Origin: a virus
Virus record (IMG/VR): IMGVR_UViG_3300047489_000453
Location: 64,001-128,000 of that record
Direction: 5' to 3' (one strand)
DNA length: 64,000 bases
Both the position numbers and the translations under genes were made by a program. Below are positions 1,401 to 58,073 of this stretch, in pieces. Position 1 is the first letter of the stretch, and each line of letters starts with the position of its first letter. A model generated the notes under the pieces. That model searched no databases and was not told the DNA's origin. It was given only the letters and a program-made list of their open reading frames with translations.

Positions 1401-2246
1401 TTGGTGAAAGGAGCCACCATGCCATCTAAAAAAATCGCCGTATTTAGCATCATGCAAAACGAAGATATATTTTCTAGGATATGGGTTAATCACTACTCTA
1501 AGCTAGTTCCTACATCAGATATGTTCATACTTAATCATAATACTTCAACTGAAAAAGCCATGAAGCACCTTGAGGACTTTAAACTAGAGGGCGTTAACGT
1601 CATAGATATAAACAACAGCGTCAGCTTTGATCATGAATGGCTCAGAGACACTGTCAAAGATTATCAAAAGAAGCTATTAGAATCCTATGAAGTGGTAATA
1701 TTTGCCGAGGCCGACGAATATATAGTAATAGACCCAAGTAAAACAAACCTAAGCCTATCAGAATATATTTCAGAATTCTTCAAAGACGGCGTTAAAAACA
1801 CAATACGCTGCACGGGGTACTGCGTTGATCATGTTGTAACACAGGAGCCACCGTTAAATCTTTCAAGGCCAATATTAGCCCAAAGATCCAGGTGGCGCAG
1901 AACCTTTATGTTTGATAAGCCTCTAATATCAAATCAACCTTGCGATTGGCATATAGGATTTCACTGGATTGAAGGCAAAGAAAACTCTCATACACCGGAT
2001 CGTAATGTTTTATTATTACATCTACACAAGATGGACTATTATTTATGCCTGCAGAAGCATGCTGAGTCTTCTAGAAGAAATTGGTCAGAAAAAGACATCA
2101 ACGAAAGAATAGGCGAGCATAACTATATAAGCGGCGACGTGGACCTATATAAATGGTTTGTATCTGGATCTAAGTTTCAAAAAACTGGCAACGAACTTGT
2201 AAAGTATCCTGACTATATAAGGAACATCGATCTACGATATTCTTGA
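1401..2246 (+). CDS. Glycosyltransferase family 2-like protein (start probably ATG at 1419)
   Basis: IAVFSIMQNE..WVNHY, ADEYIV DxD-like motif, GFHW and LLHLH; AAGGAG precedes the ATG at 1419. Confidence 0.7.
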   Translation: MVKGATMPSKKIAVFSIMQNEDIFSRIWVNHYSKLVPTSDMFILNHNTSTEKAMKHLEDFKLEGVNVIDINNSVSFDHEWLRDTVKDYQKKLLESYEVVIFAEADEYIVIDPSKTNLSLSEYISEFFKDGVKNTIRCTGYCVDHVVTQEPPLNLSRPILAQRSRWRRTFMFDKPLISNQPCDWHIGFHWIEGKENSHTPDRNVLLLHLHKMDYYLCLQKHAESSRRNWSEKDINERIGEHNYISGDVDLYKWFVSGSKFQKTGNELVKYPDYIRNIDLRYS

Positions 2247-2288
2247 TAGATAAAAAAATCAGCCGTAGCGCATAAGCTACGGCTGATT
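2245..2288. terminator. Intrinsic terminator between convergent genes
   Basis: AATCAGCCGTAGC/GCTACGGCTGATT stem; minus-strand tail TTTTTTTATCTATC. Confidence 0.8.
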
Positions 2289-2292
2289 AAAT

Positions 2293-2742
2293 TTATCTAA
2301 CCTTATCAAAGTACCTGTCCAGGTTTCTGGACACAAGGGCGGTGACTGCCCTATCCACCTTCAACCCTATTTTGGGCGTCGGGGAGTCTATAGCCAGCCA
2401 CCTGAGGTCTTTGGAGTTTTCTGTCATTTTCTTGTAGTCAGAAAATGACATCTCTCCGAATAGCTCACAGACGACTACTCTGTAAGCTTCCTGGCTAACT
2501 TCTCTCAGCATGGTTTCATTAGGCGTGACAACGTCATCGCCTAACGAGACTATGTTGAACCTCTTCTTGTAGGCTCTTCTATAGGCCTCGGAGAAGTTAC
2601 CGTAAACCTCGCCTGCAGCCAGCTTATCAGCTGGCATATCCATTACCGTCATAACTGGCCTTGGAGTAACGCCCTCCAAGGCTGGCTTGGTGTCGACTTC
2701 GACACCAAGCGCAAGGACTACCGAAAGTAACAAAGCATTCAT
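2293..2742 (-). CDS. Hypothetical protein with signal peptide
   Basis: ORF with AAGGA RBS and hydrophobic N-terminus. Confidence 0.6.
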   Translation of the reverse strand: MNALLLSVVLALGVEVDTKPALEGVTPRPVMTVMDMPADKLAAGEVYGNFSEAYRRAYKKRFNIVSLGDDVVTPNETMLREVSQEAYRVVVCELFGEMSFSDYKKMTENSKDLRWLAIDSPTPKIGLKVDRAVTALVSRNLDRYFDKVR

Positions 2743-2767
2743 GTTTTATCCTTTCTTAAAGTAAAAA

Positions 2768-3139
2768 TTATTTAACCACATCTTTTGCAGATCTTACCAA
2801 AACTATTCGCCTGAACTGGGCGAACGTCTTGATCTCTAAAAGGCCCTCCTGCAGAATACTGCAGGCGACCTTTATCGTCTTTTCCCAACCTTGTAACTCT
2901 TCATCACTTAAAAGCATGATGAGAGAGTCAGTTTGACCCCGGTAAAAATCTACCGTGGTCTTACGCCACTTCTTGCCGCCGAGCTCGGCGAATAGAAAAT
3001 CCGAGCTTGAGGTATATTTACCCCAATTTTTCCTCTTCCCGATTAGGAAGAGTTTCTCTCTCCCTTGGACGCCAAGAGAGCACACGCTCTCTTCGAAACA
3101 TCCAATCGTAAAATCATGATCATGCACTGCAGGTAGCAT
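2768..3139 (-). CDS. Hypothetical protein
   Basis: ORF with AAGGAG RBS, downstream of the promoter motif at 3210-3235. Confidence 0.6.
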   Translation of the reverse strand: MLPAVHDHDFTIGCFEESVCSLGVQGREKLFLIGKRKNWGKYTSSSDFLFAELGGKKWRKTTVDFYRGQTDSLIMLLSDEELQGWEKTIKVACSILQEGLLEIKTFAQFRRIVLVRSAKDVVK

Positions 3140-3209
3140 GTCATTTCTCCTTTAAGATGTCCGTCACGCCATGGCGAAAGCCATGGTTAAAACGCGCGGA
3201 TCACCTAAT

Positions 3210-3235
3210 TATGACGCTAAAATGCTTCTAATTTA
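3210..3235 (-). promoter_or_regulatory. Phage promoter motif TAAATT-N14-GTCATA
   Basis: One of 7 copies with identical 14-nt spacing. Confidence 0.7.
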
Positions 3236-4000
3236 GCTTTTCTTATTTAGATACATATCGCACAAAAATGTGAAAGAAAACTTCTTTAGCTTGTCTCTTA
3301 CGGTCGATATGTTAAGGCCAAACTTCTTAGCCCATCTTGGAAGTGTCATTGATTTGCCCATGTAGCTATACAGCTTAGGCTTGTTTATTTTTTTAGCCAT
3401 TGGAGACGCTGCTATGTCGTCTCCGCTGTATCCTTGGACATACAGGCTGCATACTGTTTCAAAATTAAGTCTAAGCTGCTTACAAAACGCGCTTAGGCTG
3501 AGTATCTCGCCCTTATAAACCACATCTCCGCATACCTTTGGAGGCTCTTCCATTATGGCCTCCTCAAAAGTCAACCCTCTCCTTAGCCTGGTATTTATAG
3601 TGTTGTAACACAGACCGAGATCTTTACACCAAACTGCAAGTGGTTGCTTTTTGCCTTTATATTCTATTATTCTGTTGGTTGACTTGTTTATAGCCTGCAT
3701 TTCAGAGACTATCCATTTCATGTTATTTGTCACGTAACCTTTATCATTATCTATCCTTTCAATCGTAAATTTATCCTTGGGTAAAGGGCATTCTCCAACT
3801 TCATTAAGAAAGTTTAAAAAGCTGTACCTGTAAAAGTCATCAAATACAAATCCTCTTCCGCCGTAGTTCTCATATCTTGCGTGTCTTGGATTGTGACACT
3901 TACTTATTATTCTTTGCCATGTTTTGTACTCTTTATAAAACCGTCTTCCTGGCATTGATGCGCCAGCCACGTCTAAATTTGTGAATGAATAATTTGGCAT
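3233..4000 (-). CDS. HNH-type homing endonuclease with repeated small DNA-binding domains
   Basis: W..I..KC.NP....Y.NYGGRG; TIERIDNDKGY...N.KW; three Y(K/M)G...L...C/W..L.L repeats. Confidence 0.8.
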   Translation of the reverse strand: MPNYSFTNLDVAGASMPGRRFYKEYKTWQRIISKCHNPRHARYENYGGRGFVFDDFYRYSFLNFLNEVGECPLPKDKFTIERIDNDKGYVTNNMKWIVSEMQAINKSTNRIIEYKGKKQPLAVWCKDLGLCYNTINTRLRRGLTFEEAIMEEPPKVCGDVVYKGEILSLSAFCKQLRLNFETVCSLYVQGYSGDDIAASPMAKKINKPKLYSYMGKSMTLPRWAKKFGLNISTVRDKLKKFSFTFLCDMYLNKKS

Positions 4001-28785: not shown

Positions 28786-29154
28786 TTAGTTGGTATCGCC
28801 ATCGCGATACCATGTACCGCCCGTGAAGGGCAGCTGGACAAGGGTTACCTTGTCAGCGCCCTCACCAGATGTGGCTACTCTGGTGAATCCCACATTCGTG
28901 ACTGTCCAACTTCGTGAAAACACGAAGGCTTTAAGTCCTATCTTCTGTGGGAGAGACGCTTCTTGGTAACCTGCACATTTGTCAGCGGACGGTAGTCCGC
29001 TGTACTGTGACAGGTCGTAAGCGGAAACGCCAACCGCTATCAACAGACATGTAAACGCCGCCAACAGAAGTTTGTTAAATATATTAACAACCCCTGCTAT
29101 AAAAGCCATTACAGTCTCCACCATGGCATTTTCTCCTTTCATAAAAGAGGGCAT
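28786..29154 (-). CDS. Membrane-anchored hypothetical protein (cassette gene)
   Basis: Hydrophobic N-terminal part; AAGGAG RBS before MVET. Confidence 0.6.
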   Translation of the reverse strand: MPSFMKGENAMVETVMAFIAGVVNIFNKLLLAAFTCLLIAVGVSAYDLSQYSGLPSADKCAGYQEASLPQKIGLKAFVFSRSWTVTNVGFTRVATSGEGADKVTLVQLPFTGGTWYRDGDTN

Positions 29155-29218
29155 GCCTGCCCTATATGAGATTAAGAATCATTCACGTCTGAATGATTAA
29201 CCTATCCCTTCATATATC

Positions 29219-29244
29219 TATGACACATTTGTGCCTTGAATTAA
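29219..29244 (-). promoter_or_regulatory. Phage promoter motif TTAATT-N14-GTCATA
   Basis: Motif extends into GATATATGAAGGG, similar to the neighbouring copies. Confidence 0.75.
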
Positions 29245-29254
29245 GGGCATGGGT

Positions 29255-29297
29255 GATAGCTAAAAAAATAACCCAACCCACTATTCAGTGGGCTGGG
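29255..29297 (-). terminator. Terminator with TTTTTTTAGCTATC tail
   Basis: CCCAGCCCACT/AGTGGGTTGGG stem on the minus strand. Confidence 0.75.
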
Positions 29298-29418
29298 AGA
29301 TTTTTATTAGTGCCAGGGAAGATATCCCTAGCATAACCAGACCAACCAGTCTTTCGGTTGGGCTGGAGTTAAATCCAAAGCTAAGCATTAGACCCAGGGT
29401 AATCATGATTTCAAACAT
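29281..29418 (-). CDS. 45-aa hydrophobic microprotein (not in ORF track)
   Basis: AAGGAGG RBS; MFEIMITLGLMLSFGFNSSPTERLVGLVMLGISSLALIKISQPTE*. Confidence 0.5.
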   Translation of the reverse strand: MFEIMITLGLMLSFGFNSSPTERLVGLVMLGISSLALIKISQPTE

Positions 29419-29450
29419 GATTACCTCCTTTCTGTATGACCAAGTCCCCC

Positions 29451-29633
29451 TTAGGAGAAGGACTTGGCGGCCACAGCGTTAACTGGTAACGCTTTGTGGC
29501 CTGACGAGAAGATCTTTGACCTGGCAACAACGCCGGTCTTAGATTCTTCTCTAATGGACTCTTCTTTCGGATGAGCCCATACAATCCGTCTTGCTTTTGA
29601 CAGAAGCAAGAAAAACTGTGTGCTTGACTGCAT
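29451..29633 (-). CDS. Small hypothetical protein (cassette gene)
   Basis: AGGAGGT RBS. Confidence 0.6.
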   Translation of the reverse strand: MQSSTQFFLLLSKARRIVWAHPKEESIREESKTGVVARSKIFSSGHKALPVNAVAAKSFS

Positions 29634-29709
29634 GTTACCTCCTATAACACTATCAAGCTGGGATCAGGGCCACATCGCATGTGGCAGATAACCCGTCCCT
29701 TCATGTATA

Positions 29710-29735
29710 TATGACACGGTAACGGGTTGAATTAA
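29710..29735 (-). promoter_or_regulatory. Phage promoter motif TTAATT-N14-GTCATA
   Basis: Lies 10 nt downstream of the preceding terminator tail. Confidence 0.75.
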
Positions 29736-29745
29736 GTGGTCCAGT

Positions 29746-29784
29746 AATAGCTAAAAAAAAAGAACCCGGCCTTTCGGCCGGGTT
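29746..29784 (-). terminator. Terminator with T-run-AGCTATT tail
   Basis: AACCCGGCC-GAAA-GGCCGGGTT. Confidence 0.85.
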
Positions 29785-29790
29785 GACTAC

Positions 29791-30075
29791 TTAGTAGTCT
29801 GACGCCGGTGAGGCGTCATTCTTTTTATTTTTGGGCTTTCGCTTCTTCTTCAGAAGCTTAGCCCGCCGGATTAGGCGAGCAGCCCGCTTGGCTTCCCGCT
29901 CGTTGTCGAGACGGGTAATGGCAAGCAATACCTCCTGTTGGAGGGTTGCTTGCGCATGCCTCTTCTTCATTAAGTCGTCAAGGCGACGACTTAAGAAGAT
30001 TCGGCTATGCAGCTCGGCCGCCAAAAGGCCAAGCCCGAAACAAAGGATACATCCAATGATGTACTCCATGTCCAT
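29791..30075 (-). CDS. N-terminal TM, basic coiled-coil protein (cassette gene)
   Basis: AAGGAG RBS; TM segment then an R/K-rich tail. Confidence 0.6.
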   Translation of the reverse strand: MDMEYIIGCILCFGLGLLAAELHSRIFLSRRLDDLMKKRHAQATLQQEVLLAITRLDNEREAKRAARLIRRAKLLKKKRKPKNKKNDASPASDY

Positions 30076-30166
30076 TGTTATACTCCTTTCAGTATAACGA
30101 GGTCAGCGTCTGCTCAAACGAGCAGACTGTAAGCCGCCTCTAATGGTTATGTCTCTTTCATGTATA

Positions 30167-30192
30167 TATGACACGTTTATGGCCCGAATTAA
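30167..30192 (-). promoter_or_regulatory. Phage promoter motif TTAATT-N14-GTCATA
   Basis: Extended identity with the 29710 copy (CGTGTCATATATACATGAA). Confidence 0.75.
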
Positions 30193-30353
30193 GGCCTGGT
30201 AAGTGATGCCTAAAAACATCTAGATCAACGCCAGCGACAGACTGCACTAGCGTTGATCGGTAATCCCCACGCATTATGGCCGTCGCCATAATGCAATATG
30301 ATGGTCGCTCAATATTCGCTCGGGGCTTGCGAATAGCCAACATATCATTTAAT

Positions 30354-40156: not shown

Positions 40157-40915
40157 TTAAAGAACACCATTGCCTGGTTTAAATTCCTTGGGTTTCTCAT
40201 CAATATAATCATAACCGCTTTGTGGAGACGCCTCCACTTCTTTATCCTTATCAATATTGTCCTTAACTTCGTCTGGAAGATCCTTTTCCTGGCTTATTGG
40301 AACCAGGCAATGCTCGTATGGGCCGAACTTATGGTGTATTGCTGGCGGCTTGATAAGGAACAAGCTATCTATGCCGTCAACCATAACGCCTATAAAAGCA
40401 GCAGACTCATTAGCCAGCTTGCTTGTAAACGGATAAAACTCTCCTGAGCCAGCATACCTTAAGTCAGTTGTTAAAACCAGATAACCAGGAACTACTGTTA
40501 CCCCATGATATTTGTAGTTCAAAGTTGCCAATCCAGGCATATCAAAATAAACTCTTACAGATGGCGGAATTACGGCAGAGTCTGGTAAAGGTGCTGACGG
40601 GTGGACATGATTACCGCCGTCTAAGGTAGGAGACACTGTGCCAAGATTAGGAGGCGGAGACCCGGTAAGATCGCTTCTAAATTTCTTCAAGTTTTCAGCT
40701 ATTACCTTTGATCTGTCAGTCTCGCTTAAAGACCTTAGCTCATTTACCTTGTCTTGTTTGACAGCGTACGGGTTGCCGCCTAGAGACTTCATAGCATTAA
40801 GGTCTATAGTGAATGAGTCTAGTTCATGGGGGTCTACTACTATTTTTGTTACGTTTTTGTTTGAATCTATGTTTGATCCATTGGTTATAGAAGCCAGGCC
40901 ATTATGATCATTCAT
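40157..40915 (-). CDS. Hypothetical protein
   Basis: ORF with AAGGA RBS. Confidence 0.6.
   Translation of the reverse strand: MNDHNGLASITNGSNIDSNKNVTKIVVDPHELDSFTIDLNAMKSLGGNPYAVKQDKVNELRSLSETDRSKVIAENLKKFRSDLTGSPPPNLGTVSPTLDGGNHVHPSAPLPDSAVIPPSVRVYFDMPGLATLNYKYHGVTVVPGYLVLTTDLRYAGSGEFYPFTSKLANESAAFIGVMVDGIDSLFLIKPPAIHHKFGPYEHCLVPISQEKDLPDEVKDNIDKDKEVEASPQSGYDYIDEKPKEFKPGNGVL
40222..40237. repeat. Dispersed palindrome copy GTGGAGACGCCTCCAC
   Basis: 1 mismatch; inside a CDS. Confidence 0.8.
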
Positions 40916-41154
40916 CTGTTATTCCTTTCGTTTACCTAACAATGTTAGTTTATAATCTAACTTTTTACTGTTTTACGTCTGAATAAGCAACATGATATCA
41001 ATAGAAAGGATTATAAGTTTTCTTGAAGAAGTCCAATTATTTATTGAGACTAGCACTTGGTTCCATTATGTTTTTGCCTTGTCTGCCGTATATCTTACGA
41101 TTAACGCCCCGCTTATTATAGACTACTTATTAGGCAGTGATCCTTTTGATGGCT

Positions 41155-41196
41155 AATAGCTAAAAAAAATCACAGGAGCGAACTCCTGTGATTTTT
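41155..41196. terminator. Terminator with T8AGCTATT tail
   Basis: AAAAATCACAGGAG-TTCG-CTCCTGTGATTTTT on the minus strand. Confidence 0.85.
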
Positions 41197-41198
41197 GG

Positions 41199-41399
41199 TT
41201 AGTCTTCGTAGATCATCTCTACGACCTCTAACCGGTAGCAGTCGTTACCAAGAAAGTTTTCTAGCTTCTTGGTCAGGTCAAGCATTGATTCTGCTTTGAC
41301 CATGGTTCTATACTGCCCTCCGCCTGGGAGTACAGTCCTGGATGGGCAGGGGTAAAGCCACGCTATTACTGCGTAGCTTGTTTCATCTTTTTCTTCTAT
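41199..41399 (-). CDS. 66-aa ORF with probable ATA start (not in ORF track)
   Basis: AAGGAG 8 nt before ATA; overlaps the upstream TAG; ends at the terminator. Confidence 0.4.
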   Translation of the reverse strand: MEEKDETSYAVIAWLYPCPSRTVLPGGGQYRTMVKAESMLDLTKKLENFLGNDCYRLEVVEMIYED

Positions 41400-41590
41400 T
41401 GTACTATCTCCTTATAAAAGGGATAAACCTTAACAACATAAACTTCAACAGTGTTATTCGAAACCGTCTCTATCCTAACGTCGCCAATGAAGTTGTTTTC
41501 ATCGGCAAATTTTAACGCTTTATGGACTATCTGTCTTTCCAATACAGTATCCAAAGACCAGTTGTTACAAACTTCAGCCTGAAGAATCAT
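41396..41590 (-). CDS. Small hypothetical protein
   Basis: GGAGGT RBS. Confidence 0.55.
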   Translation of the reverse strand: MILQAEVCNNWSLDTVLERQIVHKALKFADENNFIGDVRIETVSNNTVEVYVVKVYPFYKEIVQ

Positions 41591-41610
41591 AGTAACGTAA
41601 CCTCCGTGTT

Positions 41611-41661
41611 AAAAAATGAACCGGGTCTATCAAAACGAATGATTTAGTTTGATAGACCCGG
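41611..41661 (-). terminator. Terminator closing the putative large ncRNA
   Basis: 14-bp perfect stem CCGGGTCTATCAAA/TTTGATAGACCCGG, then TTCATTTTTT. Confidence 0.75.
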
Positions 41662-42230
41662 CCTGGTATGACGCCCGCCCAGACAGAATAGTTACAAGAC
41701 CGAAGTCTTTTATTCCCTGAGGCCGAACGGCGTTTTTGAGAAGATCGCTCAGACCTGGCTTTAGTTGACTAGCAGGGTTGAAAGCTTATAGCAGTAACCC
41801 AAGGCCAACAACACCAGCTGTTAGGTATAGTAATCCGCCGACGCTAATCGACAAACCTCTATACTAGCCGAACACCTTCTCCCCGTTAGATAATGCTACT
41901 TCACGGTTTAGGCAGCATTCTGACTAGGCGCTCTGGAACTAAGGGTATATCGAAACGAGTCAGACTAGTTATTAAAGGCTTGCGCCCTTAAAGGTCAGAA
42001 TGAGGTATTCGAAACGGCCTAAGCCTTATCTTAGCTCTGATCGACCTGGAAGTAGGTAGGCAAACTTATTACTGCGTTGGCGCTACTTGCGAGTCGCACG
42101 AAACCCGGTAAGAGAGGTATGTGTTTTATACTCTCCGCAGGGTAAGGCAGCAATGAGCCAGCTACGTACTCAGACTGGAGACGTCAGATTCTCCGGCCAC
42201 CGGAACTAATTGCTCAGCTCCGATACGAAG
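41611..42230 (-). ncRNA. Putative large structured noncoding RNA (~570-620 nt), class unknown
   Basis: No ORF of 60 aa or more on either strand; more than 12 stems with G-U pairs on the minus strand; GCAA and cUUCGg tetraloops; possible pseudoknot. Confidence 0.65.
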
Positions 42231-42232
42231 GA

Positions 42233-42922
42233 TTACTCCTCCGATTTTTTTATTACCTTGCTTTTCTTAGCAAGGTTATAGCCCATTCCCAGCTTATTAA
42301 GCTGGTGCTGAAAGCCGTATTGGGTTATGAAGTTTCCTTCATCACCCAGTAGGCCCTCAAAATCATAACACTGCGGGTTATCATCCCCCAGAACGAACCC
42401 CTCTGGGAGGAGTTCGTTGGGGATGAAAGTAAAATCCCCCATTTTATTTTTTATTAAGGTTTGGTAAAGAGCGTCCAGCTTTTTAGGCTCGTTAGAGCCC
42501 GCAAACCTGGACAACCCACCTATATCCAACACGTCTAAGTCTGGTACCTGACTTTCTAAAAAGCCGGTCACCAGTTTTGGTTGTCTCATGTGAACGCATT
42601 CCTGCGTCGACAGCCTAGCCTCCGCTAGGCAAGCAGCTGCCGCCACATACGGGTTTTTTCCCAGCCCGTGAAGGGCTGGTATGAACGAGCAGACTGCCTG
42701 GCGCTTGCCATCGCGCCACTGCCATATGGTAACCGAACGGTTACCATATCTGGACAGACATATTACCTTTTCAATAGGTAATATTTTGTTGAGCAGCACT
42801 GTCTTTGGCTTCTCTGGAAGCCAACACATCCACGCTTTGTCGTCGAACTTCCCACCAAATATCCTTTTTACTCCTAGTTCGGCGACCTGATCCATAGAAA
42901 CCTCAGACGCTACTACATCCAT
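42233..42922 (-). CDS. Hypothetical protein immediately upstream of the putative ncRNA
   Basis: AAGGAG RBS. Confidence 0.65.
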   Translation of the reverse strand: MDVVASEVSMDQVAELGVKRIFGGKFDDKAWMCWLPEKPKTVLLNKILPIEKVICLSRYGNRSVTIWQWRDGKRQAVCSFIPALHGLGKNPYVAAAACLAEARLSTQECVHMRQPKLVTGFLESQVPDLDVLDIGGLSRFAGSNEPKKLDALYQTLIKNKMGDFTFIPNELLPEGFVLGDDNPQCYDFEGLLGDEGNFITQYGFQHQLNKLGMGYNLAKKSKVIKKSEE

Positions 42923-42941
42923 GACTGACTCCTTTCATGGG

Positions 42942-43229
42942 CTACCTTCTGGGCAGCCATTTAACGCTGTCAAAAGGGACAGCTACCTTGGTGCGCCTTG
43001 CACCTCTATCGCCACCTTTAAGGGTGCAGATAAGTCTGTTCCCCTTAGAGTGGCGGCGAGTAACTTCTATGTACTCGCCATCTATTAGGACATGCGGCTT
43101 CAAGGGAAGCCTCTTATTCCCCTTGTTTGAGCCTTTACTAAAAGCCCAAACAAGGAACCCTATGATGGATATGGCAAATAATGCTTCCATTGGGTGTCCT
43201 TTCTTGTCGCCAATAACACATGGCAACAT
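42942..43229 (-). CDS. Small membrane-anchored basic protein
   Basis: TM segment ALFAISIIGFLVWAF; likely start at MEALF. Confidence 0.55.
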   Translation of the reverse strand: MLPCVIGDKKGHPMEALFAISIIGFLVWAFSKGSNKGNKRLPLKPHVLIDGEYIEVTRRHSKGNRLICTLKGGDRGARRTKVAVPFDSVKWLPRR

Positions 43230-43234
43230 AATAT

Positions 43235-43260
43235 TATGACGCGTTTTTGCCCTGAATTTA
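43235..43260 (-). promoter_or_regulatory. Phage promoter motif TAAATT-N14-GTCATA
   Basis: Exact motif and spacing; upstream of the operon ending in the putative ncRNA. Confidence 0.7.
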
Positions 43261-43263
43261 GGG

Positions 43264-43626
43264 CTAGGAATTGAACTCTTCGTCGTCGTCGATCACATCT
43301 GGATCATCAAAAAGAAAGCCGTCTACGTCTATCTCGACGGAGTCATCGACATGGGTAAGATCGGCTTCGATAATGTTGTTACTTGATATAAGCTTTCTTG
43401 GAGGAAGTGAAATGTGCCATCTCTCGCCTTTGACTATAAAGCAAGATACTCTTTTCTTGACTAGTTTTCTAAGCTCAACTACAAGGTCGTCCTTGGCAGT
43501 AAACTCCTTGCACTCGGGCTTTCCAAAATCAGGCACCACTATCAGATAGAACTTGTCAGGGTTGCTATCTTCAGCATGGCCTGTTTCAGGTTCGCTCTGG
43601 CCATTGTGCATCTGGTCCGCCTTCAT
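43264..43626 (-). CDS. Hypothetical protein with acidic tail
   Basis: ORF track. Confidence 0.55.
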   Translation of the reverse strand: MKADQMHNGQSEPETGHAEDSNPDKFYLIVVPDFGKPECKEFTAKDDLVVELRKLVKKRVSCFIVKGERWHISLPPRKLISSNNIIEADLTHVDDSVEIDVDGFLFDDPDVIDDDEEFNS

Positions 43627-57573: not shown

Positions 57574-57589
57574 ACAAAATTTGTCTCCT

Positions 57590-57697
57590 TAAAACTCAAA
57601 AGAATGGTACTCGTCTCCTAACGCTCTTTTTGCAGCTTTCTTTACAAGCCTCGTCAAAGTTAGGATGACGAGGCTTTTTAGTATTAGGGGTTTTCAT
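57590..57697 (-). pseudogene. Chimeric remnant: sigma-gene 5' end joined to a copy of the 3' end of gene 58325-58573
   Basis: 57645-57697 matches 59222-59274 at 52/53 nt; the adjoining frame encodes LVKKAAKRALGDEYHSFEF. Confidence 0.65.
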
Positions 57698-57872
57698 TAA
57701 TGCGATCTTCGTGAATGAAATTTTTGCCTACAAATTTAGGGTCAGCGAACATAAAGATGCTGTCCGTAGGAACCAAGTCCTGCTTGATGGAGATGCTCCA
57801 ACGAGCATTCATGAAGAATGCCACATCTTTTTCATGTCTTAATCTCATAGCTTGTTCTTCAGTATGATCCAT
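57684..57872 (-). CDS. Small hypothetical protein
   Basis: AAGGAG RBS. Confidence 0.55.
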   Translation of the reverse strand: MDHTEEQAMRLRHEKDVAFFMNARWSISIKQDLVPTDSIFMFADPKFVGKNFIHEDRINENP

Positions 57873-57884
57873 GCGTATTCTCCT

Positions 57885-58064
57885 TTAACTCTTACAAAAG
57901 GTGTGATCGTCTATGTTAAAAAACAGCTTTGAAAACACAATAGACCTTAGGACGGTCTGTTGTTTTTCTGTTAATCTTTTAAACAGCTCTCCGCGGCTTT
58001 CACCAGAAAGCTGATACATAGCAACAATCAAATTCACCATTTCCTTTTCCTGATAATCTACCAT
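57885..58064 (-). CDS. 59-aa hypothetical protein (not in ORF track)
   Basis: AAGGAG RBS; MVDYQEKEMVNLIVAMYQ...; fills the gap between neighbours. Confidence 0.55.
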   Translation of the reverse strand: MVDYQEKEMVNLIVAMYQLSGESRGELFKRLTEKQQTVLRSIVFSKLFFNIDDHTFCKS

Positions 58065-58073
58065 GCTACTCCT

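Follow-up and report, generated by a model that had tools for sequence, protein, structure and literature searches.

What is made from 642 nucleotides (nt) of a phage genome in which no gene can be read? The question is raised by a locus in a window of 64,000 nt (bases 64001-128000 of the 136,787-base IMG/VR virus record IMGVR_UViG_3300047489_000453, with a CheckV completeness of 67%; related records reach 181-192 kb and a completeness of 88-93%), where the minus strand holds nearly all of the genes and where a gap of this length separates the stop codon of a gene encoding a 229-amino-acid (aa) protein (42233-42235) from the start of a 64-aa gene (41590). Replication-type genes (a DNA polymerase, an exonuclease subunit and a RuvC-like resolvase) lie upstream of the gap, the genes directly around it found no match in Pfam, PHROGs or NCBIfam, and the DNA sequencing runs that contain the stretch are labelled as lake, river or freshwater metagenomes. 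An earlier, sequence-only reading of the window had taken the gap for a large structured RNA. The analysis described here points to a new, clade-restricted family of structured phage RNA that would be stable and act in trans; taken as a whole, that reading appears to us evenly balanced. The gap itself is backed by three independent lines of evidence: covariation, conservation above that of its flanks, and presence in RNA libraries.

The gap is the longest stretch of the window that is both without a minus-strand open reading frame (ORF) of at least 50 aa and unfilled by a plus-strand gene, as had been claimed from the letters; its own ORFs encode 32-40 aa, and none exceeds 40 aa. The structured non-coding RNA region is placed at 41611-42232 on the minus strand. 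A decayed protein gene was considered for it and rejected: six-frame peptides of the gap (35 stop-free segments of at least 15 aa), compared with the genes of relatives, gave a best expectation value (E) of 0.016, at a non-syntenic position, and left no protein remnant or counterpart. Searches with Rfam 15, whose families include ROOL, GOLLD, HEARO, OLE, raiA, riboswitches, ribozymes, group I and II introns, RNase P, 6S and SRP RNAs, returned no match at the gathering threshold in the window or in seven related loci (49.8 kb). At E<=10, the region 41300-42600 gave two weak matches (E 7.1 and 8.8), both in the 229-aa gene and none in the gap, and the corresponding gaps of two relatives (L007 and L010) gave only 10.6-16.7 bits (E 1.7-5.9), far under the family thresholds. 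ARAGORN found no transfer RNA and no transfer-messenger RNA in the window, and the earlier statement that hallmarks of transfer-messenger RNA, RNase P and introns are absent agrees with the Rfam and ARAGORN results taken together; blastn with the region as query drew no match among 50,697 phage records, and the internal direct repeats of the gap are short (13-17 nt) and were judged uninformative. The RNA thus matches no described family, having no Rfam 15 match in the window or in the relatives tested.

On its sense (minus) strand, the gap folds at -221.0 kcal/mol (z-score -5.13), better than each of 100 dinucleotide shuffles, whereas the antisense strand (z -1.85) is equalled or bettered by 7 of 100; runs with 20 shuffles gave z of -3.29 and -1.33, respectively. 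Folding of this kind had been argued earlier from mismatches that resolve as G-U pairs on the minus strand, an argument that was right for the gap but overlooked that the whole operon is hairpin-rich and that the gap is no isolated structured island: it forms the non-coding end, rich in G-U pairs and strand-specific in its folding, of a unit that abounds in hairpins throughout. For that reason the case is rested here on comparison and expression, and not on folding energy.

Relatives were gathered through protein-guided searches with the neighbouring 252-aa and 639-aa proteins, which yielded 4 and then 30 IMG/VR loci, plus 10 metagenome loci; the same search of IMG/VR with the 229-aa protein alone returned no relative. 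One locus (L037) is 100% identical to the window over 2401 nt, and the only other copy of the window's RNA is therefore an identical one that provides no comparative information. Gene order is conserved among the relatives, and a non-coding gap between the homologue of the 229-aa gene and a small gene is kept at the same site in four lineages, with lengths of 642 nt in the window, 510 nt in L007, 326-370 nt in the L008 group (L008, L039/L040 and L046) and 477 nt in the L010 group (L003/L010/L042, L006 and L041). Several further loci (L011-13, L014/15, L016-19 and L036) are without the long gap and the small gene, and keep no more than a terminator and a promoter-like stretch (130-264 nt). Between the four lineage gaps BLAST found no similarity, and local alignment scores lay within or near the range of shuffles. 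Against shuffles, the sense strands of the four gaps fold with z of -5.13, -3.58, -3.45 and -8.02, and their antisense strands with z of -1.85, -0.08, -1.16 and -4.90.

What the four gaps do share is the 7-mer TGTTCGG (shuffles average 0.03 shared 7-mers), which marks a compact helical module. Its 5' strand consists of 5-10 variable nt followed by GU(U/G)CGG; its 3' strand, after 35-114 nt, begins with YYUG(A/G/U)GC, which a single unpaired G separates from the complement of the variable nt. Folded, this gives an outer helix that covaries freely and an inner helix of six pairs, two of them invariant G-U wobbles, with one bulged G between the helices. The window and L007 each hold two such modules (in tandem in the window), and the L008 and L010 groups hold one each. 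When 10 copies (9 of them distinct) were aligned with MAFFT, the 13-pair helix was paired in 94.9% of 117 cells, 6 of its 13 pairs changed on both sides (in 19 cells), and none of 500 shuffles matched it on four of five measures (paired fraction, double-change cells, pair types and covariation score); helix registers slid by 1-3 columns were at most 60.7% paired. When copies from a second locus described below were added (11 copies, 10 distinct), a further MAFFT alignment put two 3' strands out of register and was dropped in favour of a model-fitted one, where 95.4% of cells are paired, 22 cells carry double changes and again none of 500 shuffles is as good. Two-sided pair changes in independent lineages, the covariation that had been asked of homologs, are thus found, for the module helix only. 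In the inner helix, one U-G and one G-U pair are invariant in all 10 distinct copies, and the third position varies (U-A, U-G or G-U). Because the invariant wobbles would be C-A mismatches on the opposite strand, the module helix is a helix of the minus-strand RNA. RNAfold alone recovers the helix with its bulged G in four of six modules and chooses another register in the other two.

The module is also specific to its place and clade. A rule-based scan of the 136.8-kb genome found exactly two copies, both in the gap, and the same scan of 20 shuffled genomes gave one hit in total. A covariance model (R1) built from the 10-copy alignment found only its training copies in 39 loci (418,652 bases), only the two gap copies in the window's own genome at E<=10, and nothing at E<=0.1 in five other whole records (G001, G002, G003, G008 and G009). 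In two L010-group genomes, it found a second, non-syntenic locus (G005, E 2e-5; G007, E 2.7e-6), where the module stands behind an unrelated 167-aa gene and has a 14-bp outer helix; between the two loci (L161 and L166), a G-C pair of that helix is changed on both sides to U-A. Pattern searches of IMG/VR added nothing further. A loose pattern for the type I copies defined below gave 109 stretches, of which only known L010-group and L007 contigs were plausible after a test of the outer helix (five hits with 4 bp and one with 9 bp, all without inner hairpins, were set aside as chance-like); a type II pattern gave a single stretch, the L007 contig; and a junction pattern gave 32 stretches, three of them in contigs already assigned to the family and the others chance matches in redundant contigs. 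A scan of 185,579 prokaryote genomes gave 27 stretches, all at or below 15.9 bits by R1. Across these IMG/VR and genome pattern scans, the module is found only in this clade. At the second locus it is followed by ~470 nt of G-rich, degenerate short repeats (GGCGAGGC / GGCGTGGC units; L161:950-1480, minus strand, and L166:1590-2150), which hold no long ORF and precede an ORF of 21 codons; nothing comparable is seen in the window's contig.

Evidence of expression comes from RNA sequencing runs, six of which hold 34-55% of the sampled words of 41400-42400. Four of these, from four study codes and chosen for holding the gap stretch, were compared with 40900-43300, and all eight contig pieces, from all four runs, fall within 41514-42317. 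The 95-aa gene at the head of the operon, most of the 229-aa gene, the intergenic region that comes next and the 3' part of the 64-aa gene are free of RNA contigs, an emptiness that means an absence of contigs only. Since the flanks inside the search stretch itself (41400-41513 and 42318-42400) are empty in all four runs, the pattern is unlike a uniform carry-over of DNA. The mapping of metatranscriptomes that had been proposed for the gap thus returned assembled contigs on it from each of the four libraries (strand and ends are not shown by contigs), and the RNA of this minus-strand, ORF-less stretch is found in libraries where most of the flanking coding sequence is not seen. Contigs from two studies end at 42228 and 42229, 4-5 bases past the stop codon, a coincidence that offers a weak hint of a 5' end; one contig (42100-42317) joins the gap to the 3' end of the 229-aa gene, and another spans 41514-41664, from the terminator into the 64-aa gene. 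The likely extent of the RNA is from ~42229 to the U tract at 41611, or ~619 nt.

A third line is provided by closely related genomes. Between L010 and L006, the RNA is 94-99% identical from ~90 nt past the stop codon through the terminator, as compared with 55-80% DNA identity for the upstream gene and 72-80% for the small gene downstream. Within the L008 group, the few substitutions in predicted stems mostly keep the pair, and one hairpin tip carries lineage-specific insertions. The same comparison of L010 (2350-3340) with L006 shows a 231-aa homologue that is 55-80% identical amid flanks that are 96-100% identical, an alignment that marks its gene as an apparent local hot spot of divergence.

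Read from its 5' end, the RNA of the window begins with a hairpin directly after the stop codon (42199-42224), which is lineage-specific and for which no counterpart was recognised in relatives. Its loop AGCAAU (42214-42209) is truly complementary to AUUGCU at 42154-42149, as proposed for a pseudoknot; in the minimum-free-energy structure, the AUUGCU(GC) segment pairs with GCAGUAAU and not with that loop. A GGAGA/UCUCC hairpin is present in the gap, and a hairpin with a GCAA tetraloop (41972-41991), seen in this lineage only, lies within a domain closed by a 9-bp long-range helix (42002-41994 with 41924-41916). These elements, like the others that had been named earlier, were recomputed and are all present where they had been placed.

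Downstream of this lineage-specific part, comparison of the sequences delimits the core of the RNA as a predicted hairpin, Hx, followed by one or two GUUCGG modules. Hx (AAUGCUGC/GUAGCAUU, 41892-41919) has an 8-bp stem and a 12-nt loop, CUAAACCGUGAA, and lies 10 nt upstream of module 1; similar hairpins precede the first module by 10-11 nt in L007 (3464-3490, loop CCUAAACGGUACC) and the L008 group (3537-3564, loop CACAAAUGGUAA), and in these three independent sequences, compared by eye, the stems are wholly different and the 12-13-nt loops are similar. Module 1 (41738-41881; R1 score 50.4 bits, E 1.1e-11), which includes a G-U-rich stem lying within 41864-41825, is of ‘type I’: it has the outer helix GAGAAGGU/AUCUUCUC, a bulged G, the inner helix GUUCGG/UCUGAGC, the junction CUA and two inner arms. 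Module 2 (41671-41733; 41.2 bits, E 4.4e-9) is of ‘type II’, with the outer helix ACGCC/GGCGU, a bulged G, the inner helix GUUCGG/UCUGGGC, the internal loop CCUCAG and, as its arm, the UUCG hairpin AAGAC-UUCG-GUCUU (41709-41696); its closest counterpart is L007:3502-3564. More generally, type I copies (window module 1, L008 and L010) have CUA(A) after GUUCGG and open into a three-way junction, whose strands CUAA and UGAAC are identical in L008 and L010 though all three helices differ; in L007 module 2 and at the second locus, CUA comes with just one, long arm; and one arm together with an internal loop YCUCAG marks the type II copies (window module 2 and L007 module 1). A linker, CAUACCAGG (41662-41670), joins the last module to the terminator; here ACCAGG(G)CC is common, by eye, to three lineages including L010 and L007, and the terminator stems differ. 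The intrinsic terminator T1 (41611-41661) has arms of 15 and 16 nt (41661-41647 and 41636-41621), a 10-nt loop and a U tract at 41620-41611, and its segment folds with z -6.6; it is omitted by the consensus terminator scan, which takes loops of 3-8 nt.

The operon in which the RNA stands (the 95-aa gene, the 229-aa gene and the RNA) is headed on the minus strand by a promoter-like motif, AATTCAG-N10-GCGTCATAAT, at 43233-43258. Exact copies of the 10-mer GCGTCATAAT number three on the minus strand, and a search that allowed one mismatch gave 11 matches (3.28 expected); AATTCR-N9-13-GTCATA occurs four times (0.10 expected). All nine relatives examined keep the motif in front of their 95-aa homologue, and in L010 a second copy lies just after the RNA's terminator, before the small gene. 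The earlier proposal had the RNA transcribed, together with the 229-aa gene, from a promoter at 43235-43260; the recurrence and conservation of the motif at 43258-43233 and the one contig that bridges the gap and the 229-aa gene speak for it, and the promoter function is the predicted part of it. The unit would then start with a promoter at 43258, take in the 95-aa and 229-aa genes, the RNA, T1, the 64-aa gene and a 34-aa ORF, and end with a second minus-strand terminator, T2 (41196-41165; 41156-41196 together with its TTTTAGCTAT box). That box is found five times on the minus strand and six times on both strands (0.52 expected). Terminators followed by TTTTAGCTAT recur, and at 29155-29790 they are joined to the promoter-like motif; the resulting composites in the window (terminator, TTTTAGCTAT and AATTCR-N10-GYGTCATA) end at ~29219 and ~29710, T2 stands at 41196-41156, and T1 is without the box. 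The 252-aa gene has its own conserved upstream sequence. Two observations concern this end of the unit: 40916-41395 (minus strand) is a second ORF-poor stretch, of 480 nt, holding the 34-aa ORF, the two-way terminator 41165-41196 and an AGCTAT box, and conservation at the DNA level is seen upstream of the 252-aa gene (~40950-41011) in L007, L008, L013, L040 and others.

Put together, the reading that we prefer is that the RNA would be made as the 3' part of a transcript started at the 43258-43233 motif and ended at T1 (41661-41611), and that, from ~42229 onward, it would be freed from the mRNA or outlive it, accumulating as a discrete, stable RNA of ~0.6 kb. A protein or another RNA would dock at its invariant wobble helices and junction nucleotides, which would offer two specific sites per RNA in this phage, and the lineage-specific 5' domain of ~350 nt would be a scaffold. 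Docking is favoured because two copies per RNA (window and L007), strict non-Watson-Crick pairs and distal freedom fit recognition better than bulk structure. That the RNA acts in trans is, taken alone, a step that we regard as possible and slightly doubtful. The variable region around the unit has terminator-plus-promoter composites at its borders, which fits the unit's presence or absence among relatives.

A number of points weigh against this reading. The helix was defined by eye on the very sequences on which it was tested, which inflates the statistics somewhat; the 11-copy alignment was itself fitted to the covariance model; and only ~7 independent module lineages are available, all from one phage clade. 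The 5' ~350 nt of the window's RNA is without comparative support, its sole other copy being identical, and L010-group sequences are poorly conserved over the ~90 nt that follow the stop codon, where 0 of 16 pairs covary. Assembled contigs from preselected runs speak for presence, and not for strand, ends or level. Taken in pieces of 240 nt, the gap folds ordinarily (z -1.3 to -1.9), and three sub-segments of its body reach z of -1.6 to -2.6 only. The neighbouring coding genes out-fold the gap, so that folding energy alone would not pick it out, and some process in the operon may favour hairpins irrespective of any RNA function. Finally, the product of the 64-aa gene (41396-41590, minus strand, with GGAGG 7 nt before its ATG) was tried as an RNA-binding partner and rejected: its AlphaFold2 model shows a confident small fold (predicted local distance difference test score 87.5; strand-helix-strand-strand) with no recognisable RNA-binding fold, and no fold match was found in the PDB (best E 0.57).

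The main rival is that the element works in cis, as an attenuator or riboswitch-like leader in which the module senses a ligand or a protein and decides on termination before the small gene. Tandem riboswitch aptamers and transcription attenuators form the general class for comparison, and the likeness is considerable. The module has a covarying closing helix, and in the window, L007, L008 and L010 a distance of 9-25 nt separates it from the intrinsic terminator that follows; in L046 and at the second locus (L161/L166), its 3' strand runs directly into a U-rich tract, so that the module helix could itself terminate transcription. The type I junction nucleotides (CUAA and UGAAC) are kept while three helices change, as in an aptamer; GUUC can alternatively pair with the junction GAAC, and the base that varies there (G or A, L008 versus L040) keeps the alternative pair; tandem modules recall tandem riboswitches; and a small gene follows in all four lineages at the main locus. 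However, in L010 a separate promoter motif stands between the terminator and the gene, the second locus has no following gene for ~470 nt, a conserved 5' domain of 180-350 nt would be needless for a leader, type II copies are without the GAAC alternative, and the conserved letters lie mostly inside a wobble-rich helix. No Rfam riboswitch or other aptamer family is matched, and a convincing anti-terminator pairing, as part of a riboswitch platform, was looked for and none was found. On balance, we regard control in cis as unlikely.

Somewhat less can be said for the view that the gap merely serves the upstream mRNA, as a structure at its 3' end for stability or processing, and does nothing by itself. 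RNase III hairpins are put to such use by phage T7, and it is in keeping with this role that the gap lies at the end of the operon, directly after a stop codon, that the whole operon is hairpin-rich and that one RNA contig extends beyond the gap into the 229-aa gene. On the other hand, the coding part beyond 42317 is unseen in all four RNA runs in which the gap is seen (as judged by contigs only), the invariant wobbles, bulged G and junction letters suggest specific recognition rather than bulk stability, and the module recurs behind an unrelated gene; an mRNA element of this kind is, in our estimate, distinctly improbable.

The possibility that the gap has no selected function, being a spacer or a decayed cassette whose hairpins come from the mutational process (for example, template switching at quasi-palindromes) that would also have supplied the neighbouring genes with their perfect palindromes, draws on the observation that the 229-aa gene upstream folds better than the gap, and equally so on both strands (z -12.4 sense and -13.1 antisense; -11.8 for a 642-nt piece), on the variation of the region's length and content among relatives, and on the poor conservation of the 5' part in the L010 group. 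It becomes very improbable in light of the strand asymmetry of folding of the gap in all four lineages, the invariant G-U pairs and covarying outer helix in ~7 independent copies, an RNA core more conserved than both flanking genes (L010 versus L006), the coverage of the gap in RNA libraries and the lack of any protein remnant found in it. Scarcely worth entertaining is a small self-cleaving ribozyme that processes the transcript, to which ~25 conserved nt around a three-way junction with variable arms and the seeming existence of the RNA apart from the mRNA would be suited, but for which there is no Rfam ribozyme match even at E<=10, no junction in the type II and single-arm copies, and no clustering of contig ends at a module position.

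How does the RNA of the preferred reading compare with known systems? ROOL and GOLLD are large ornate RNAs that are often found in phages or prophages; a cryo-electron microscopy paper deals with them (10.1101/2024.12.08.627333). The gap resembles these in being ORF-less, several hundred nt long, rich in helices, phage-borne and putatively abundant; it differs in having no Rfam match, in sharing only a ~60-145-nt module among its lineages, and in a total length that varies two-fold. The earlier assignment to this size class, as an ornate RNA of ~600 nt, holds insofar as a structured RNA is concerned and is otherwise not supported, since what is shared is the 60-145-nt module and one hairpin, in RNAs of 326-642 nt. 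The packaging RNA (pRNA) of phage phi29, likewise stable, is organised around a three-way junction and has a structure that is better conserved than its sequence; the likeness lies in that junction and in poor sequence but good structure conservation, and the difference in that the present phage is of a different type, at ~190 kb. The conserved 639-aa neighbour was considered as a portal protein, and family searches gave no support, so that this reading was left unused.

Two further bodies of published work bear on the layout and the size of the element. ‘Promoter-early stem-loop’ (PeSL) cassettes of T4-type phages are composites that shuffle small genes (PMC2839356, PMC4122927). The flanks of the present unit are alike in that composites of terminator, TTTTAGCTAT and promoter-like motif surround it, with the RNA-plus-small-gene unit present or absent between such elements; by sequence, a terminator stem-loop followed by an early-type promoter-like motif is indeed found around variable small genes. 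The likeness concerns the flanks and not the RNA, is one of layout, and does not extend to T1, which is without the box. Mining of IMG/VR has also produced 8,495 unnamed structured-RNA candidates of 29-151 nt from phage intergenic regions (PMC10690425). The module is of the same size class and is present in IMG/VR in at least three distinct copies, and, as far as the main text of that study allows, it may be among those candidates. No description of this RNA was found in the literature searched, a comparison that covered that study outside its supplementary alignments.

The wider interest of the locus rests in part on its setting, large phages of uncultured freshwater hosts that are nearly free of annotated RNA genes, and in part on the module, which is compact, well-defined and open to synthesis and probing. 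A new RNA-protein or RNA-ligand pair would be gained from the module, provided that it serves for specific docking or sensing; as a decoy, the RNA would lengthen the short list of RNA-based phage counter-measures. A bolder extension, which we consider rather unlikely and yet worth stating, is that the RNA might be the first member of a phage RNA class of its own: abundant, early-made, trans-acting, ~0.3-0.6 kb long and travelling as an ORF-less cassette, whose repeated wobble-helix modules would serve as high-affinity decoy or docking sites for a host protein (for example, an RNA-processing or defence factor), within operons selected for extreme structure in their coding RNA.

The protein partner that had been proposed for the RNA was the product of the 229-aa gene (42233-42922, minus strand). 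The proposal found no support in the pattern of co-occurrence: the 229-aa family occurs without the RNA in L011-L015, and the module also occurs behind the unrelated 167-aa gene. The gene is a fast-evolving one with 17 hairpins of at least 6 bp, many of them perfect, and its protein has no match in Pfam, PHROGs or NCBIfam (an atlas lead of 0.85 is under the useful range). Between L008 and L040, its homologues differ at 8, 2 and 52 first, second and third codon positions (51 synonymous and 6 non-synonymous changes), and it is therefore truly coding and under protein-level selection. In the same pair, 19 of 34 predicted base pairs touched by a substitution stay canonical, against 9.4 +/- 2.4 under a crude null that ignores transition bias, and homologues in five other lineages fold with z of -6 to -10. 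The 95-aa gene (42942-43229, minus strand) is likewise hairpin-rich (z -6.1) and without a Pfam, PHROG or NCBIfam match; tblastn finds homologues at 30-37% identity in L007, L008 and L011-13. Control folds of the 120-aa, 252-aa and 64-aa genes gave z of -1.2, -1.0 and -2.3. Homologues of the 64-aa gene follow the RNA in L007 and the L008 group (41-51% identity); a 65-aa gene at the same place in L010 has no relation to it that BLAST can detect, and the second locus is without such a gene.

Hairpin-rich coding sequence is itself concentrated in the window. Over 266 windows of 240 nt the median z is -0.9, and three runs at or below -3.5 (2161-3360, 28801-30240 and 42241-43200) each lie directly downstream of a copy of the promoter motif; perfect hairpins of at least 8 bp, of which the genome has 49 against 7-14 in shuffles, cluster in the same three places. 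Why such structure should be selected or generated inside genes, in three units under the same promoter motif whose coding sequence is folded far beyond chance, may matter as much as the RNA. In the two runs away from the RNA (2161-3360 and 28801-30240, minus strand, downstream of the GCGTCATAAT copies at 3217 and 30361), the z of 240-nt windows falls to -9.4 and -18.8, respectively; within the latter, a minus-strand stretch of 636 nt (29155-29790, z -18.9) holds two terminator/TTTTAGCTAT/AATTCR-N10-GTGTCATA composites around ORFs of 45-60 aa. Elsewhere, 500 nt at 57574-58073 is without a minus-strand ORF of at least 80 aa and includes one 240-nt window with a z of -4.0.

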